Below the pieces are notes generated by a model, which ran no database searches, was not told where the DNA came from, and worked only from the letters and a program-made list of their open reading frames with translations. DNA of 64,000 bases. Origin: Shigella phage vB_SdyM_006. The position numbers were made by a program, and so were the translations under genes. The stretch is from sequence record MK295204. One strand, written 5' to 3'. Shown here piece by piece: positions 2,149 through 15,560 of this stretch. Position 1 is the first letter of the stretch. Each line of letters opens with the position of its first letter.

Positions 2149-3699
2149 ATGTTTGAAACTTTAAAAATGTTTAGCCCTTGGGCTAAAGAAGACCAATCAA
2201 CGTATAACCAAATAATTAATAATAACAATGATTCTATAACAGCTCCTAAATTTGATGATGGCGCTATAGAATATGAATCTGATTCATCTTCATATAATGT
2301 TTTAATGCAACAATTCTTCGGTTCTAATATAAGTCCAGAAGTTAAAAACACAACAGATTTAATTAAAACCTATCGGGCTTTAGTTAATATACATGAAGTT
2401 GATAATGCTGTTTCTGAAATAGTCAACGATGCTATAGTTTTTGATGACGACGAAGAAGTTGTATCAATAAATTTAGACAATACTTCATTTAGTGATTCTA
2501 TTAAAACTAAAATACAAGAAGAGTTTGATTCTGTTTTAAATATCTTAGATTTTAGACGAAGAGCCCAAGACCATTTTAGAAGATGGTATATAGATTCAAG
2601 GATTTATTTCCATAAAGTAATAGATGTTAATAACCCTAAAAAAGGGATAATGGAACTTAGACGATTAAATCCTTTTAATGTCCAATATGTCAGAGAAATT
2701 ATCACTGAAACAGAAAATAATGTAAAGGTTGTTAAAGGGTATAAAGAATCTTTTATCTATGATACTGGAAATGAAAGTTATACAATTGGCGGTAGAATAT
2801 ACGGTCCTAACACTAAAATATCTATCCCAAAATCTGCTATAGTTTATGCTCACTCTGGTTTAGTTGATGAATGCGGTAAAAATATTATCGGATATTTGCA
2901 TAGAGCTGTTAAACCGGCTAATCAATTAAAACTATTAGAAGATGCTATGGTCATTTATCGTATCACACGTTCTCCGGAACGAAGAGTGTTTTACATAGAT
3001 ACTGGTAACATGCCAAATAAAAAAGCAACACAACACATGAACAATATTATGAATGGGCTTAAAAACCGAGTTGTCTATGATGCAACTACAGGTAAAATTA
3101 AGAACCAACAACATAATATGGCTATGACTGAAGACTACTGGTTACAAAGACGTGACGGTAAAGCAGTTACTGATGTTACTTCTCTTCCTGGTGCAACAGG
3201 AATGAATGAAATAGAAGACGTCAGATGGTTTAATCAAAAATTATATGAAGCACTAAGAATTCCGTTATCTAGAATCCCTAATCCACAAGGTGGTGTTAAT
3301 TTTGGAATGGGCTCAGAAATAACTCGGGATGAGGTAAACTTTTTTAAATTTATCAAAATTCTTAGACATCAATTTGAGGCTATTCTTTCAGACCCACTTA
3401 AATCTAATTTAATCCTTAAAAAGATTATTACAGAAGAAGAATGGAACGAAGAGCGTAATAATATTAAAATCATTTTTAATAATGATTCATATTTTACTGA
3501 ACTTAAAGATGCCGAAATATTAGAACGTAGATTGAATATGCTTCAAATGGTAGAACCGTTTATCGGTAAATATTATTCTAATAGATCTGTTATGAAAGGT
3601 ATTCTTAAAATGACAGATGAACAAATAGAACAAGAATTTAAACAAATAGAACTAGAATCTAAAGATTCTAAATTTAATGATGAGCCCGAGGAATTTTAA
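2149..3699 (+). CDS. 20: portal vertex protein
   Basis: Long collinear similarity to T4 gp20 (e.g. [47 protein letters not shown]); start moved to ATG 2149, which follows a GGAG and a TATAAATA late promoter and matches the T4 N-terminus (FSPWAK). Confidence 0.93.
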
Positions 3700-3938: not shown

Positions 3939-4361
3939 ATGATTATTGTAGAAGATGATTTCGACATCACATTAGAAAACATAGAATCTTTTTCTGAAGA
4001 AGCAAGTAAACAATTCGACCTTATAAAAGCGTTAGAAAAAACCGATATAAATAGAATTATAGAGAACATTGCTTCTAGTGGTGATTTTGGTACTGCGATT
4101 TGTATGGGCTCATTAAACGAAAATATGCCTTTAAACGAGTATATTGTTAAACATGTTTCTTCACGCGGTGAAGTTACAAGAACTAAAGATAGAAAAACTC
4201 GTGAACGAAATGCGTTTAAAACAACTGGTTTAAGTAAATCTAAACGTAGACAAATTGCAAGAAGAGCCGTAAAAACTAAACGCGCTAATCCTTCTATCCA
4301 AACACGTGCTCAAAGAAAACGTAAAAAAGCGATGAAGAGAAGAGAGGCCTTAGGGTTATGA
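3939..4361 (+). CDS. 68: prohead core protein
   Basis: 140 aa vs 141 aa in T4; position between gp67 and gp21; basic C-terminus. Confidence 0.6.
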
Positions 4362-9815: not shown

Positions 9816-10820
9816 CTATTTTGTAATTAAATTGACCCAATCTTTTCGAATGAATTCTTGTATTTCTTTTTGAATAGATTTCTTGATTAATGCTGGGTCA
9901 TCGTAATCAAGAATATCATGCCCGTCTTTTAACATATCTTTTAAAACATCCTGCATCATTAGACCTTGAACTTTGCCAAAATCTTTTGAAGATATTTCGC
10001 CAACATGGCTAATCACATTAGATAAACGTTGTGCAGTGATATATGATGTAGAAAAATTAACCAGTTCTTGGTCGTCATTTGATAATTCTGGTGTAGGTCT
10101 AATTGTTTTTACTTTACCAGTTTCTTTGAACTTAGCATTTTTACATTTAAAAATTACACGGCTTTTATTATTGAACTGTGTTGGAGTAATAGGTTTAAGA
10201 ACATAACCTTCTGCAATATTTTCTGAACCTTCTTTTTGAGGACCAAATACGTGGGCATTTGCAGCCGGAATACCATGTTCTTTTACTATTGCATTAAATT
10301 CTGGGATTAAAGAATCAAATGAACGCTCTAAATTACTTAATTCATCAAAGTCACCAGTTAAAATAACAGGGCAGATTTTAAGATTTGTTTTAGAAGATAA
10401 CATTCTTAAAAATAAAGCATCTACTAAATCACCATTAATTAAAATATCAAATACCCAGAAATCTTTTTCTTCGTAATCTACTTCTCGTTGAATACCAGGG
10501 CCTGCATATTCGCCAAAGACTGTTAAAAGTTCTAAGTCAGGCATTGATTCTTTAACAGTATTAAACATGTCAAGAATGTTTTGTTTATAACGCTTTAAGA
10601 TTAATTCGTATCCAAAAAATGCTTCAGATTCACCAATAAGATTAGTTCGTTTTGCACAAACAACATCTACACCATCACAAATAAAACTAAAATTAGTCCC
10701 ATGTATTTTTTCTTGGGCAATCCAAGGAATACCTGGTGCTGTTTTTCCTTCAAAAAAGGCCTTTTCTACTAATTTAGTGTTATCAATATTTTCAATAGAA
10801 TCATATTTAATAAATTGCAT
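9816..10820 (-). CDS. rnlB: RNA ligase 2
   Basis: 334 aa; nucleotidyltransferase lysine motif KIHGTN, plus blocks GYVLKP and KCKN-KF and GKVQGLMMQDVL matching T4 Rnl2. Confidence 0.9.
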   Translation of the reverse strand: MQFIKYDSIENIDNTKLVEKAFFEGKTAPGIPWIAQEKIHGTNFSFICDGVDVVCAKRTNLIGESEAFFGYELILKRYKQNILDMFNTVKESMPDLELLTVFGEYAGPGIQREVDYEEKDFWVFDILINGDLVDALFLRMLSSKTNLKICPVILTGDFDELSNLERSFDSLIPEFNAIVKEHGIPAANAHVFGPQKEGSENIAEGYVLKPITPTQFNNKSRVIFKCKNAKFKETGKVKTIRPTPELSNDDQELVNFSTSYITAQRLSNVISHVGEISSKDFGKVQGLMMQDVLKDMLKDGHDILDYDDPALIKKSIQKEIQEFIRKDWVNLITK

Positions 10821-11156
10821 TTATACCTCAAACAATCGTATTTTAAGACTAGTTGTATATTTGATTTCTAAATTATAAACTTTACCACTATAAACAACAA
10901 GAATTTTATTTGGGTTTTCTTCACACCACATTATATTATCGTCATTAATAATGTTTAAAAATTCTAGCTCTGAATAACAAGCCCACGAGAATGATTTACT
11001 TAAAAACTCTTTTAAATCAAGCCAATCGGTTTCGTCACAAATAGCAGGACTCATAACAGCAAGTTTGTGGGTATATGTTTCTTTATCACACCAACGAGTA
11101 AAAAACACTTCACGTTTTTCTTCTAAAGGAATAACACCAGCAGTATACCAAGACAT
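10821..11156 (-). CDS. hypothetical protein (paralogue of next gene)
   Basis: C-terminal NKILVVYSGKVYNLEIKYT aligns with NSILVLYIGESTQLEVKFT of 11166..11450. Confidence 0.4.
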   Translation of the reverse strand: MSWYTAGVIPLEEKREVFFTRWCDKETYTHKLAVMSPAICDETDWLDLKEFLSKSFSWACYSELEFLNIINDDNIMWCEENPNKILVVYSGKVYNLEIKYTTSLKIRLFEV

Positions 11157-11165
11157 AATAATTCC

Positions 11166-11450
11166 TTATTTGATTGGGATGATTCTAAATTTGTATTCAC
11201 CGCCACGAGTAAATTTAACTTCTAACTGAGTTGATTCACCAATGTAAAGAACCAAAATTGAATTTTTATTAGAACGTAACCAGTCTTGATATTCTTCAAA
11301 AGACTTGCGTAAAGATGGGATGCTATTTTTATATCGGCCTAAAATAGTCCATGAGAATTCACCACTGCCCATCCATTTAGTGGAACGGTCATATTTTAAA
11401 AGGTTTTCAATATCAATATTTAACCATGTTTTAAAGTTTTCTTTAATCAT
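11166..11450 (-). CDS. hypothetical protein (paralogue of previous gene)
   Basis: 94 aa; shared C-terminal motif with 10821..11156. Confidence 0.4.
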   Translation of the reverse strand: MIKENFKTWLNIDIENLLKYDRSTKWMGSGEFSWTILGRYKNSIPSLRKSFEEYQDWLRSNKNSILVLYIGESTQLEVKFTRGGEYKFRIIPIK

Positions 11451-11650: not shown

Positions 11651-11831
11651 AATCTTTACAGATATCCAAGAGTTTTTTGTTTAAAGCTTCAACAAATTCT
11701 GTAGCTGAATCAGGGTATTCGTTAAATAAATAACACAAATACTCACTATGTATTTCATGGGCCACTTGAGAAACCATAGTCTTAAGTTCTTTATTCATAT
11801 AATCACCTCTCAATAATGTGTATTCTATCAT
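11625..11831 (-). CDS. hypothetical protein
   Basis: 68 aa ORF; overlaps both neighbours by about 26-29 nt, so the true start may be internal. Confidence 0.3.
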   Translation of the reverse strand: MIEYTLLRGDYMNKELKTMVSQVAHEIHSEYLCYLFNEYPDSATEFVEALNKKLLDICKDFEENNDKS

Positions 11832-12237
11832 CTAAAATATCATTAAGCATAGGACCAATGACATCCCAATTTAAGCCACCATTAGAACACCCTGGTTTAG
11901 GCAGGAGAACTCTTTTAAAATTGTTATTAGATACTATCTCCATTAATTCTAATGCACTCTTACGTATCAGGTCTTTATCAGACTTGTTATACCAATCATG
12001 TTTAGTAGGAAATGATATTAAATTAATGTTATTATATTTCGTAAGAATTCTGCATACATGGCCGTATTGGATTAAGGATTTAGCCATGATTAAGTCTAAA
12101 TTAGGAACCTTCAACGAAAAGAGACGGGCAATTCCGGCTCCCATAACAGCTCTTTTATTTTTCTTGATATTCATGTTTGTTGTAATGCAAATAGCATCAC
12201 AAGGGATATCAAGAATATTTCCAGATACTATTTTCAT
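11803..12237 (-). CDS. macro-domain protein (ADP-ribose binding/hydrolase fold)
   Basis: 144 aa; N-terminal GNILD-x4-DAICITTN and glycine loop AVMGAGIA, C-terminal LLPKPGCSNGGL, resemble macro-domain signature loops. Confidence 0.55.
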   Translation of the reverse strand: MKIVSGNILDIPCDAICITTNMNIKKNKRAVMGAGIARLFSLKVPNLDLIMAKSLIQYGHVCRILTKYNNINLISFPTKHDWYNKSDKDLIRKSALELMEIVSNNNFKRVLLPKPGCSNGGLNWDVIGPMLNDILDDRIHIIER

Positions 12238-12656
12238 AAAGCTTCTTTTAAAACTTCTATAGCATGCTTAATTTCAAAAGGGATACCTTCTGATGGATGC
12301 TGGCGAATGTTATCGTCAATATGACTAAAATCCATGCCAATTACACGGACTTTATATTTTTGCTCACTATCAAATTCTGATATATTAGAACCCCAAGTGT
12401 TTGATGATGTAACTTCTTTAGTCTCAAAATAAGTACATCCACAATGACAATATTCGTGCCAAAAATCACAGTCTTTATCAAATAAAGGGTGGTCTTCGCG
12501 AAGAGTTAAATATACCGCATAACTCCAATCCGGACGACCATCATTAAATAAAGCTTTATAACTAGGTGGTAATCCTGTAAACCATGAAGTAACTTCAATA
12601 GCTTCGCCTTTCTTTTTATCTGCATGAACAGTGTATACATATTTTTGAATAGACAT
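12234..12656 (-). CDS. hypothetical protein with His/Cys cluster
   Basis: 140 aa; contains WHEYCHCGC (HExxH-like plus Cys cluster); start overlaps stop region of downstream macro gene by 4 nt. Confidence 0.45.
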   Translation of the reverse strand: MSIQKYVYTVHADKKKGEAIEVTSWFTGLPPSYKALFNDGRPDWSYAVYLTLREDHPLFDKDCDFWHEYCHCGCTYFETKEVTSSNTWGSNISEFDSEQKYKVRVIGMDFSHIDDNIRQHPSEGIPFEIKHAIEVLKEAL

Positions 12657-12854
12657 TTATTTTACCTCAATAATAGTGAGTTCAGTATCTTCTGTCAAAT
12701 CACAAAAGTCAAAAGCCAATGCAGCAATACCTGGGTATTCTGATTCGTCAATAATACATTCAGTATTATTATTTTTGATGTCTAAGGCTAATTGATAATT
12801 AGACGTAGTAAATCCAAGTTCAAGTTCTTCGCACCATACGGTATACTTTTTCAT
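12657..12854 (-). CDS. small protein, tandem paralogue A
   Basis: 65 aa; aligns along its length with 12855..13049 (VWCEE, GF-T--YQLA, C-terminal IEVK). Confidence 0.45.
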   Translation of the reverse strand: MKKYTVWCEELELGFTTSNYQLALDIKNNNTECIIDESEYPGIAALAFDFCDLTEDTELTIIEVK

Positions 12855-13049
12855 TTATTTTACCTCAATGAGTTCACAATCGTATAAACAACTACACAGT
12901 TCACAAAAAGAATAAGCCGATGCATATGAATCAGTGTCTATCCAAAACCCAAGATTATCAATAGCACCTTTACGAACTTCATAAGCAAGTTGATAATCAA
13001 CTGTTTCAAATCCAATTTTCTTTTCTTCGCACCATACTATATATTTCAT
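12855..13049 (-). CDS. small protein, tandem paralogue B
   Basis: 64 aa; paralogue of 12657..12854. Confidence 0.45.
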   Translation of the reverse strand: MKYIVWCEEKKIGFETVDYQLAYEVRKGAIDNLGFWIDTDSYASAYSFCELCSCLYDCELIEVK

Positions 13050-13894
13050 GAGTATTCCTTGTCATAATAAGAATCTGGAGTAAAAATATTTAACATATTT
13101 GTAGAATTATCAATAGTAATAATATTTTCCTGTTCAACTTCAGGTGTATAATATTTTAAAAACTCTTCTTTAACGTATTTTACTGGATCACTTTTATAAT
13201 CGTCAGTAGAAATATCAAATAATTCAATTGTATACGTATCAAGCCATTTTTCAGAACATGTTAATCGTCCACATAATAATCCATCATAAACGATAGCATA
13301 TTCAATATGGCCCCATTTATATGAGCTATCAGCGTCGTGTCTGATTAGATAAAACTTAATATCAGAATTCTCACAATCATCACTAATATTGTCACGAACA
13401 TCGTATTCATTGAGCTCGGTCAATTCACTTAAAGCATTAATAAACAGGTTTTTATATTGAGGGCCAGTTACTAACTTATCTTCTGTTAGTTCTTTCTCAA
13501 TAAATTCTTTTAAAGTTAAAACTGGCAATTCATACTTAGGAAATAATGCAGTTTCAGTAATAGTGCCGATATTCAATTCGGCCAATTTCTTAATAACAGA
13601 ATCTTCAGCTTTATCAGAATCAGTCCAAATATGAAGAACTTTAAAATTATGATTATTCCAAATTTTTTGTGGGTCAACATCAATCACATCTTGGGTTTTA
13701 GACAAAAACATTAAAAGGTAATCAGAATCATTCCACCCTACTGGGTTTTCGTATTTTTGAATGACTAGATATTGGAAATCAGTCATTAATGCATTATATC
13801 TTTCTTTAGAAGCTAAAGAAGTAGAATCCATAGATGAAGAAAAAGCTTCAATAACACTAGCTGGGTTTTTAATTAACATTTTGAATAGTCCCAT
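13046..13894 (-). CDS. hypothetical protein
   Basis: 282 aa ORF, no recognisable motif. Confidence 0.5.
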   Translation of the reverse strand: MGLFKMLIKNPASVIEAFSSSMDSTSLASKERYNALMTDFQYLVIQKYENPVGWNDSDYLLMFLSKTQDVIDVDPQKIWNNHNFKVLHIWTDSDKAEDSVIKKLAELNIGTITETALFPKYELPVLTLKEFIEKELTEDKLVTGPQYKNLFINALSELTELNEYDVRDNISDDCENSDIKFYLIRHDADSSYKWGHIEYAIVYDGLLCGRLTCSEKWLDTYTIELFDISTDDYKSDPVKYVKEEFLKYYTPEVEQENIITIDNSTNMLNIFTPDSYYDKEYS

Positions 13895-14115
13895 GTGATT
13901 TTAACACGATCATGATATATTACTCTATCATGGCTTTTTGAAACTGTAAATCCTTTTTCTTTAAGAATTTCAATCAACGCATCTTTAATGGCTTCATTTT
14001 CTGGAAGCTTTGCGTAATGCTCTGTACTATCATGCAAAGCCAGTTGGCAAATATCATTTAACACAATAGCTAAATTGTGTTCAACAACAGTATTTTTAAG
14101 ATCAGATAAATTCAT
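13873..14115 (-). CDS. hypothetical protein
   Basis: 80 aa ORF, first gene downstream of a putative minus-strand early promoter. Confidence 0.4.
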   Translation of the reverse strand: MNLSDLKNTVVEHNLAIVLNDICQLALHDSTEHYAKLPENEAIKDALIEILKEKGFTVSKSHDRVIYHDRVKITWDYSKC

Positions 14116-14149
14116 ATTATTCTCACAGTTGCGAATTGATGATGTGTAT

Positions 14150-14177
14150 ACTATATTATAAAATAGTGTTTGTAAAC
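14150..14177 (-). promoter_or_regulatory. putative divergent early promoter (GTTTAC-N16-TATAGT)
   Basis: GTTTAC on minus strand (plus 14172-14177) with TATAGT 16 nt downstream; weaker match. Confidence 0.3.
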
Positions 14178-14200
14178 ATCTAAAATAATTTAAAATAAAT

Positions 14201-14229: not shown

Positions 14230-14271
14230 ATACATATTGAAACGAAACATGAAAAACAAATGGAGTATATT

Positions 14272-14616
14272 ATGAATAAGACACAAATCAATGCAGTTTT
14301 AAAAACTTTAGGTTATGGTAATTTACGTTATTCTAATGGTAAAACATACCGCAGAGGAAACTCTATGGTTAAAGGTTTTCATTTAATTTCTACTGGTGCA
14401 TGTATGGTGACTTCACCAGAAACACAAAAATTTAGTGATCTTGTTAATGAGTTAAAACAACATTTTGAATTACAATCATATTATGACAATTGCATGGCAA
14501 TATTTGTGACAGGAAAATTAAAAATTGTTGTTTGTTTAACAAATTTTAATACATACGGTGGCTTAAACCCAGATTATAAAACATGGTTTGCATCTGTTAA
14601 TATTGAAAAGTTATAA
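14272..14616 (+). CDS. hypothetical protein, lone plus-strand gene in an accessory island
   Basis: Start placed at the second ATG, preceded by GGAGTATAT as in two other copies of the same promoter-leader cassette; own early promoter upstream and bidirectional terminator downstream. Confidence 0.5.
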   Translation: MNKTQINAVLKTLGYGNLRYSNGKTYRRGNSMVKGFHLISTGACMVTSPETQKFSDLVNELKQHFELQSYYDNCMAIFVTGKLKIVVCLTNFNTYGGLNPDYKTWFASVNIEKL

Positions 14617-14620
14617 AACA

Positions 14621-14645
14621 AAAATGGGACCGTAAGGTCCCATTT
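14621..14645. terminator. bidirectional terminator between plus-strand island gene and gene 54
   Basis: TGGGACC-GTAA-GGTCCCA flanked by A-run and T-run. Confidence 0.7.
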
Positions 14646-15560
14646 TCAAATTAATCTTGTTACAGCTCCTATTCCTCCTCCAGCACCACCTAATCTTGTT
14701 AAATTTCTTAATGAAGAGCTTAAAGAGTTTTCTTCTGAAATTGTATCTATGGCACCAATTGCTTTTGATTCTAACCAATCAAGAGCTGCTTGCCTACCGA
14801 CAGAACCTACCTGCATCACCCTGTATGCGAATGTAACATCAAAAACAGCAATAGTATTATTATCTTCATATGAAAGTTCAGGAGCACCTACCGACATAGG
14901 AACACACCCTGTGAACATGGCAACAGTATGTGGAAGACCGTTTCTATTGTGTAAATTAACCTGGATATCGGCTTCAACATCTATAGGTAAAGCACGTAGT
15001 CCTGTGATTGGGTCTTCAACTGAATTCACCCAATCTTGCATAGCTCGATAATTACTTGCTTCTGAATCCATCCTAAACGAAATTATCAACGGGTCATATT
15101 CTCTAGATAGAACTTTTATATTAGGTGAATTATGATTTTTATCCATCTCATAAGATAGTCTGTTTTCTGGTAATTTGACAGAATAAACCATTAACCCAGA
15201 TGTTGGAAATGCCATATTAAAGAAATCTAATAGATAAGTCCCTACTTCAAATTCTCCTAATAATGATTGAACCACACGATTAGACATGGCTCCTAAAAGA
15301 TATTTAGAAACACCAGATTTTCTCACTAGTTTTTGAGTACCAGCAACAACTAGACTTGATACTGCACTAGTTACATCATTTTGAGATATTCCAAGAAAAT
15401 CTGTATCTATAGGTAAATTGTTAAACAAAAAACCACCAAAATTATCTAAAAGCTCATTAGTTTTTGATGATGGGGCTGTGGCAAAAACAACACTAAACAT
15501 GTTTGTTCTTTGGAAGTCAAGATTGACAGCTTGGCTTTTAAATTCTTCTAATGTATACAT
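14646..15560 (-). CDS. 54: baseplate tail-tube junction protein
   Basis: 304 aa; last gene of the 51-27-28-29-48-54 hub series, matching T4 order and length (320 aa). Confidence 0.75.
   Translation of the reverse strand: MYTLEEFKSQAVNLDFQRTNMFSVVFATAPSSKTNELLDNFGGFLFNNLPIDTDFLGISQNDVTSAVSSLVVAGTQKLVRKSGVSKYLLGAMSNRVVQSLLGEFEVGTYLLDFFNMAFPTSGLMVYSVKLPENRLSYEMDKNHNSPNIKVLSREYDPLIISFRMDSEASNYRAMQDWVNSVEDPITGLRALPIDVEADIQVNLHNRNGLPHTVAMFTGCVPMSVGAPELSYEDNNTIAVFDVTFAYRVMQVGSVGRQAALDWLESKAIGAIDTISEENSLSSSLRNLTRLGGAGGGIGAVTRLI

Follow-up and report, generated by a model that had tools for sequence, protein, structure and literature searches.

A tandem pair of small paralogous genes, probably old and unequally diverged, in a plastic accessory-gene block of Shigella phage vB_SdyM_006

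The sequence analysed here is a 64,000-nucleotide (nt) stretch of Shigella phage vB_SdyM_006 (record MK295204), referred to below as the window. The region of interest is 97% identical to Proteus phage phiP4-3, a T4-like phage of the genus Bragavirus (Straboviridae), and contains two small open reading frames (ORFs), taken from the ORF list, which directly follow one another:

12855..13049, minus strand: orfA, 64 amino acids (aa), transcribed before orfB; the conservative (A-type) paralogue
12657..12854, minus strand: orfB, 65 aa; the fast-evolved, Bragavirus-specific (B-type) paralogue

The TAA stop codon of orfA abuts the ATG start codon of orfB with a spacer of zero, in agreement with the original prediction of two adjacent ORFs with touching stop and start. 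The motifs quoted in that prediction, MK-Y-VWCEE, GF-T--YQLA and a C-terminal IEVK, are all found in orfA and orfB.

The similarity between the two proteins is far above chance. BLASTP aligns them with 30 identities over 69 positions (43%, E = 2e-12), and their Smith-Waterman score of 111 compares with 24.2 ± 4.5 (maximum 54) in shuffled sequences, with none of 5000 shuffles reaching 111. Both belong over their full length to one PHROG family, phrog_21221, in which residues 1-64 of orfA match positions 1-64 of the 66-position profile (E = 1.1e-37) and residues 2-65 of orfB match positions 1-66 (E = 2.5e-32). At the DNA level, the two genes agree mainly over the first ~45 nt and again over the final ~15-21 nt, and the middle is alignable only with several gaps; the last 15 nt, ATTGAGGTAAAATAA, which comprise the codons I-E-V-K-stop, are common to both genes. 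orfA and orfB are thus true tandem paralogues, which confirms the proposed duplication of a tiny gene. Both are real genes and are conserved across phage genera. The members of phrog_21221 in PHROGs v4, which both ORFs match end to end, are hypothetical proteins of T4-like phages of Proteus, Morganella and Providencia; no function is recorded for the family, and the split into A- and B-types, the tandem state and the distant members outside the T4-like phages are apparently unrecorded.

Each copy resembles the single copy of another lineage much more than it does the other member of the tandem. Identity is 68-72% between orfB and the single-copy gene of phages PM2 and SJ_PmiM, and 64-66% between orfA and the single-copy gene of the Gualtarviruses MP1 and PSTRCR_121, whereas all cross-type comparisons between A- and B-type sequences give ~35-43%. 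With six outgroups, bootstrapped trees recover the T4-like clade in 147/150 replicates, the B clade in 150/150 and a grouping of A with the Gualtarvirus genes in 113/150; A and B are sisters in 15/150. The corresponding values with one outgroup are 124/200 for A with Gualtarvirus and 45/200 for A with B. Relative-rate tests assign 12-18 unique changes to orfB and 2-6 to orfA (p between 0.0004 and 0.03 in most comparisons), while orfA and the MP1 copy evolve symmetrically. The rate of orfB is about 4-fold higher, and its changes fall mostly in helix alpha1 and the segment that follows. Very probably, then, orfA and orfB are old paralogues that diverged asymmetrically. The duplication may date from before the Bragavirus-Gualtarvirus split or from the Bragavirus stem, both of which predate the divergence of the known Bragaviruses.

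The asymmetry is also visible in the sequence motifs. orfA retains a core motif, T-x-D-Y-Q-L-A-Y-E-V-R-K-G-A, which in orfB is altered to ALDI(K/A)NNN; the B-type has a conserved signature of its own, NNNTE..EYPGIA..FCDLTE. Profile searches revealed distant family members (P0013-P0018, 66-100 aa) in unrelated, non-T4 phage contexts, for example next to genes for DUF7173 and AAA_24 proteins, or next to a helicase, a DUF2800 protein and a 722-aa protein on a 44-kb contig. All of them retain the A-type core T-x-D-Y-Q-L-A-Y-E-V-R-K-G...N-C...D-C-T-I-E-E, which is altered in the Bragavirus B-type only, and orfA is 46% identical to the outgroup P0013. Judged from these sequence contexts, the small domain moves between unrelated phages. 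Distant-member loci lie at L014 5001..5204, L007 469..696 and L015 832..1134, and P0016 has an N-terminal extension of 35 aa. A phmmer search of orfB against 1.84 billion representatives returned one true relative; two other hits, the long repeat proteins P0007 and P0008 (Calx-beta-like), were rejected, their scores arising from internal repeats.

The two genes are located in a plastic accessory-gene block between the homologue of baseplate gene 54 and RNA ligase 2. The block lies on the minus strand, and its order of transcription is g80, g282, orfA, orfB, g140, a macro-domain gene, several small ORFs and RNA ligase 2:

14619..14648, minus strand: intrinsic-terminator-like hairpin of 13 pairs plus a T run, downstream of the baseplate tail tube initiator gene
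14148..14184, minus strand: two overlapping sigma-70-like promoter candidates from a consensus scan, TTTAGA-18-TATAAT and TTTACA-17-TAGTAT, in the gap upstream of g80
13873..14115, minus strand: g80, which opens the block; phrog_8208; 46% identical to its PM2/SJ_PmiM homologue
13046..13894, minus strand: g282, 282 aa from the first ATG; its stop codon overlaps the orfA start (ATGA)
12855..12869, minus strand: last 15 nt of orfA, ATTGAGGTAAAATAA, with GAGG 8 nt upstream of the orfB ATG
12657..12671, minus strand: last 15 nt of orfB, ATTGAGGTAAAATAA, directly before the g140 ATG and containing GAGG
12234..12656, minus strand: g140, 140 aa, phrog_20299, the conserved downstream neighbour; its ATG directly follows the orfB stop
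11803..12237, minus strand: macro-domain protein, 144 aa, phrog_335; its start overlaps the g140 stop
9816..10820, minus strand: RNA ligase 2

The true start of g282 is more likely at 13879, giving 277 aa, as called in phiP4-3 and in contigs L006 and L009. g282 has no match in Pfam, PHROG or PDB, and g140 none in PDB or Pfam. The macro-domain gene matches Pfam Macro with E = 2.4e-4 (21.5 bits; the cutoff is 22) and PDB entry 5m31, an 'Appr-1-p processing domain protein', with E = 8.8e-7. Its ORF is intact in phiP4-3 (L001 3004..3438) and in phage Pm5461 (L011 3004..3438); the GenBank records of both call just a 141-nt fragment at this gene, and that of Pm5461 has an additional 'putative membrane protein' on the opposite strand. 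These calls are likely mis-annotations.

A survey of copy number in related phages, as the original prediction had suggested, yielded zero, one A-type, one B-type or two copies. The tandem A+B arrangement with g282 in front is found in the window, phiP4-3, the ENA contig L006 and the Logan contig L009, four genomes or contigs that differ from each other (dS, the synonymous divergence, reaches 0.29 in g282 and 0.7 in orfB). A single B-type copy without g282 is present in PM2, SJ_PmiM and contig L010, and a single A-type copy, placed after a 251-258-aa homologue of g282, in the Gualtarviruses MP1 and PSTRCR_121 and in contig L008. The tblastn search added one A-type match each in the Gualtarviruses Rgz1 and PSTRCR_127, and a scan of IMG/VR recovered only phiP4-3 and MP1, nothing new. 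The Bragavirus Pm5461 has no family member and instead carries two tandem g80-family copies in the same spot (L011 3867..4100, minus strand, 77 aa, 48% identical to window g80; 4123..4344, minus strand, 73 aa, 30%); the locus thus generates tandem paralogues repeatedly. One further A-type member, P0004, resides on a 40.7-kb contig with the NCBI label 'TPA: hypothetical protein [Vibrio cholerae]'; its sequence is Gualtarvirus-like, and the contig is probably that of a phage filed under a bacterial name.

g282 occurs only where an A-type copy exists and is missing from PM2, SJ_PmiM, L010 and Pm5461; its identity to the 251-258-aa gene before the A-type copy in MP1, PSTRCR_121 and L008 is 28-30% (E 1e-14 to 1e-18). 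g282 and orfA are present or missing as one block, whose two boundaries are the AAATG of the g282 start and that of the orfB start, and in PM2 and SJ_PmiM the stop codon of the g80 homologue overlaps the B start. These boundaries fit a start-to-start deletion or, equally, an insertion. Identities between MP1 and L008, window and MP1, and window and L008 are 79%, 54% and 51% for the macro-domain gene, 55%, 29% and 28% for g282, and 71%, 66% and 60% for orfA, so that all three genes alike give the order (window,(MP1,L008)). Since orfA follows the order of its neighbours and we know of no donor-like block, the favoured account is that [g282][A] descended vertically and was deleted once, in the PM2 lineage.

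Purifying selection acts on both copies. The four tandem genomes encode orfA proteins that are the same or differ by a single substitution (dN, the non-synonymous divergence, 0-0.006; dS 0-0.056), and dS in the adjoining g282 is 0.14-0.29. Possible reasons for the low synonymous divergence of orfA are a recent sweep or conversion of the segment, or constraint at the nucleotide level. The alleles of orfB have dN/dS ratios of 0.16-0.46, with no signal of positive selection among them. Between the window and L009, g80, orfA and g140 are 100% identical in nucleotides, and orfB is 83% identical with a dS of 0.68. The L009 orfB is a mosaic, PM2-like over codons ~10-38 and equal to the window sequence at both ends, and represents a sub-genic exchange of alleles by recombination. 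This also proves that orfB is allelic with the single copy of PM2. Two other exchanges were considered and rejected. Gene conversion between A and B was suggested by an excess of shared codons, mostly at the gene ends, that is not significant (p = 0.069), and an origin of PM2 B as an A/B chimera through unequal crossover is ruled out by a nucleotide comparison that found no A-derived tract.

The terminator-like hairpin at 14619..14648 separates the late structural genes from the block, and the promoter candidates at 14148..14184, which are matches to the consensus, would be its likely early promoter; in the record of Morganella phage MP1, a terminator and a promoter are annotated in equivalent relative positions. 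Within the block, the tail of orfA probably serves as ribosome-binding site for orfB, and the tail of orfB, with the same 15 nt, probably serves g140 in the same way. The GAGG lies within the IEVK-stop codons, so that the conserved IEVK tail is probably in part the ribosome-binding site of the downstream gene. The single-copy B alleles of PM2 and SJ_PmiM have a different end (IILTNKDL) and AAGGA instead of GAGG. A further sigma-70-like match (TTGACA-17-TATTAT, 11/12, 12698..12670, minus strand) inside the 3' end of orfB was rejected as a functional promoter and is probably due to chance, because it is not conserved in PM2 and SJ_PmiM, transcripts from it would begin within the ribosome-binding site and the complete scan does not exceed chance.

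The AlphaFold2 model of orfB, built from 18 sequences, is confident, with a predicted local distance difference test score (pLDDT) of 91.9 and a predicted template modelling score of 0.78. It shows a small alpha/beta fold with the elements b1 (2-8), b2 (13-17), a1 (20-27), a2 (31-37), a3 (41-53) and b3 (58-63). Conservation within the family is strongest from the end of strand 2 through helix alpha1 into the following turn, and it is at exactly this place that the B-type has diverged. All 16 family members tested are acidic, with isoelectric points (pI) of 4.05-4.69, as acidic DNA mimics are; orfB has 14 Asp+Glu against 4 Lys+Arg. Such acidity is necessary for an acidic DNA mimic, yet far from specific. 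Pfam searches with all members, at default settings and at E ≤ 10, gave no family (the single entry, eIF3a_PCI_TPR-like at E = 0.047, is noise), and a PDB sequence search with the family profile returned only MS2 coat protein, a chance match at E = 0.088. Foldseek against BFVD found nothing at E ≤ 0.001; the best matches (template modelling score 0.66-0.68, E > 0.05) are uncharacterised phage proteins, and no function follows from them. Zinc binding was considered and rejected: the A-type has Cys at four positions, of which only two are conserved across the T4-like members, and the first is Asn in distant members. Literature searches on phiP4-3, phrog_21221 and Bragavirus returned nothing on orfA or orfB.

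Taken together, these data are best explained by the following sequence of events, to which, as a whole, we assign a probability of about 0.6. The gene would have been duplicated no later than the origin of the genus, and B would then have diverged rapidly; PM2-type phages would later have lost [g282+A], and Pm5461 the whole family. orfA and orfB would be transcribed within an early unit driven by a host-type promoter, and their translation would be coupled through the GAGG that the IEVK-stop codons of each copy hold for the next gene. Each of these small acidic proteins may bind a macromolecule of the host or the phage through its alpha1 surface, which is the weakest step, and A and B may recognise different targets or target variants (neofunctionalisation), so that keeping both would widen what the phage can cope with. 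As a tentative working model, the alpha1 face would contact a conserved target and B would have been re-tuned to another target or variant. The case for an anti-defence role, which the original prediction had raised, is circumstantial and draws on the acidic pI, the position behind sigma-70-type promoter candidates and the dispensability of the genes (0-2 copies).

Several points weigh against this interpretation. The tree is based on neighbour-joining only and on ~64 columns, and the long branch of B may be drawn toward the root; a duplication in the Bragavirus stem is possible, with A and B as sisters in 10-22% of bootstraps. The promoter scan found 37 sites compared with 30.8 ± 5.8 in shuffled sequence, which is no enrichment, so that early expression is argued from position and from analogy with T4. 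T4-like phages in general have tightly packed genes with embedded ribosome-binding sites, features that do not prove that the neighbours are functionally linked. The orfA model (11 sequences) is only moderately confident, with a pLDDT of 64, although its outer elements are as in the orfB model, and the sequence and fold searches of PDB, Pfam and BFVD gave no significant match to any family, known anti-defence families included. Finally, the grouping of A with the single-copy genes of Gualtarvirus in 62-75% of bootstraps also suits an import of orfA.

Under that alternative, a B-only Bragavirus, with B as the fast-evolved vertical orthologue, gained a [g282 + A-type] cassette from another T4-like phage directly upstream of B. 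We regard it as possible, although unlikely. The adjacency of a ~250-aa gene and an A-type copy is the Gualtarvirus arrangement, the block is bounded exactly by start codons, orfA is nearer to MP1 (66%) than its neighbours are (macro-domain gene 54%, g140 46%, g282 29%), and the sub-genic mosaicism points to frequent recombination at the locus. However, g282 is 28-30% identical to every known Gualtarvirus-type homologue, a distance that vertical descent predicts (MP1 and L008 share 55%), and with g282 so distant from all of these no plausible donor is known. An import would require that g282 was lost earlier and then came back to the place it had left, which takes more events than a single deletion, and would leave the common IEVK 3' end of orfA and orfB in the tandem genomes unexplained. 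The original prediction had instead proposed a recent tandem duplication in place, selected for dosage or diversification. Adjacency with zero spacer and the 5' and 3' ends common at the nucleotide level, including the 15-nt tail, speak for a recent event, as does the number of synonymous codons common to A and B of one genome (16/21, compared with 11/23 for A and the PM2 B allele), but this excess is not significant (Fisher p = 0.069). Protein identity is only 43%, the closer orthologue of each copy belongs to another lineage, A and B are sisters in just 10% of bootstraps, and B alleles within the genus have already drifted to 70% identity. Nor do the copies look like recent duplicates by other measures: they are not mutual closest relatives, their nucleotide identity is not full-length, and the pair occurs in four genomes or contigs rather than one. 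We therefore abandon the recent date, and the copies are too diverged to fit dosage amplification, which makes a recent duplication retained for dosage the least credible of the explanations considered. Diversification fits better than dosage in that the divergence is strong, old and asymmetric; the dN/dS ratios of orfB lend it no support in the form of positive selection.

Two further alternatives concern function. One holds that the family is a minimal, catalytically dead GIY-YIG-like domain, either a decayed homing-endonuclease module or a mimic, which targets or counteracts such nucleases or their DNA substrates. The best structural match of the family is the 5-hydroxymethylcytosine-specific nuclease PD-T4-3, although not a significant one, and an alignment shows a conserved Tyr in strand 1 and Glu in strand 3. 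The GIY-YIG nuclease domain, known from I-TevI, SLX1 and PD-T4-3, has a three-stranded sheet with helices in the order beta-beta-alpha-alpha-beta (the orfB model has beta-beta-alpha-alpha-alpha-beta), and its catalytic residues are the Tyr of GIY, the Tyr of YIG, an Arg in helix 1, a metal-binding Glu and an Asn. In our family, the position preceding the invariant G-F holds K, E, Q or A and not the Tyr of the second motif; the A-type has a conserved Arg 13 residues after the Gly, which is lost in the B-type, whereas in I-TevI the Arg follows the Gly by 8 residues; and at 64-65 aa the proteins are too short, the C-terminal Asn-bearing helix being missing. None of 11 members matched the GIY-YIG profile (Pfam PF01541) at E ≤ 10, and hhalign of the family with the I-TevI catalytic domain gave a probability of 0.13%. 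The likeness to GIY-YIG is a topological resemblance only. We consider a derivation from, or mimicry of, such a domain improbable, and the more specific proposal that the proteins are decoys or inhibitors of GIY-YIG-type defence nucleases, with a conservative and a re-tuned copy in phiP4-3-type phages covering two target variants, very improbable. The other alternative, to which we give similarly little credence as to the GIY-YIG-like domain, makes the small proteins subunits or regulators of a module of g140 and the macro-domain protein, for instance in an ADP-ribose-related counter-defence, with A and B as alternative partners. Bragavirus, Gualtarvirus and L008 all keep the order small gene, g140, macro-domain gene; successive stop and start codons abut or overlap, and the probable ribosome-binding site of g140 lies in the small gene. 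On the other hand, Pm5461 retains g140 and the macro-domain gene without a member of the small family, P0013 and P0018 adjoin unrelated genes, and the gene order that related T4-like phages have in common comes from their ancestry and adds no independent support.

The old, asymmetric pair thus represents ordinary paralogue turnover in a plastic region of a T4-like phage and belongs to an uncharacterised family. In T4-like phages, plastic ('hyperplastic') regions such as the T4 gene 54-alt interval contain accessory small early ORFs. A weak match of the g80 homologue in contig L010 to Pfam Phage_T4_Y10B ties the block to this interval, and the block resembles such regions in its small, dense and overlapping ORFs after a host-type promoter candidate and in a content that varies among close relatives through indels, duplications and mosaic exchange. 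It differs from T4 in that no homologue of the orfA/orfB family was detected there and the block neighbours (macro domain, g140, RNA ligase 2) are different. T4 Arn and T7 Ocr are small acidic inhibitors of host defence that act as DNA mimics. orfA and orfB are likewise small, strongly acidic (pI 4.05-4.3, net charge -6 to -11) and dispensable, with an apparent early-region location, and no sequence or structural similarity to mimics of the Ocr, Arn or ArdA type was found for the family.

The result is a modest one, which replaces the reading of a recent duplication for dosage. A single locus documents 0, 1 or 2 copies, the loss of a block and patch-wise exchange of alleles among close Proteus phages. 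A small family with a sharply conserved DYQLAYEVRKG common to unrelated phages and a confident fold model of the B-type are now available for use, and the natural genotypes A+B, B only, A only and none can serve questions of host range and counter-defence in therapy phages of Proteus, Morganella and Providencia. If the copies do bind different targets, they would illustrate cleanly how a phage accessory gene can neofunctionalise once duplicated.

Three further observations concern the surroundings of the pair. A lone plus-strand gene of 118 aa (14260..14616), with 46-47% identity in PM2 and SJ_PmiM, lies between the late-gene terminator and the promoter candidates of the block. Another adjacent pair of paralogues is formed by a 111-aa gene (10821..11156, minus strand, phrog_18468) and a 94-aa gene (11166..11450, minus strand, phrog_19888), which have a C-terminal stretch of ~27-45 aa in common (BLASTP E ~ 2e-4, reciprocal PHROG matches ~2e-5); several relatives of this pair are found in Gualtarviruses, and a 214-aa protein of MP1 (L003 5316..5960) matches twice. 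The 111-aa gene is only 65% identical in nucleotides to its L009 counterpart (3318..3653), with a dS of ~1.9, while identity between the window and L009 reaches 96-100% in genes at a distance of a few hundred bases, which marks another sharp mosaic boundary within the block.
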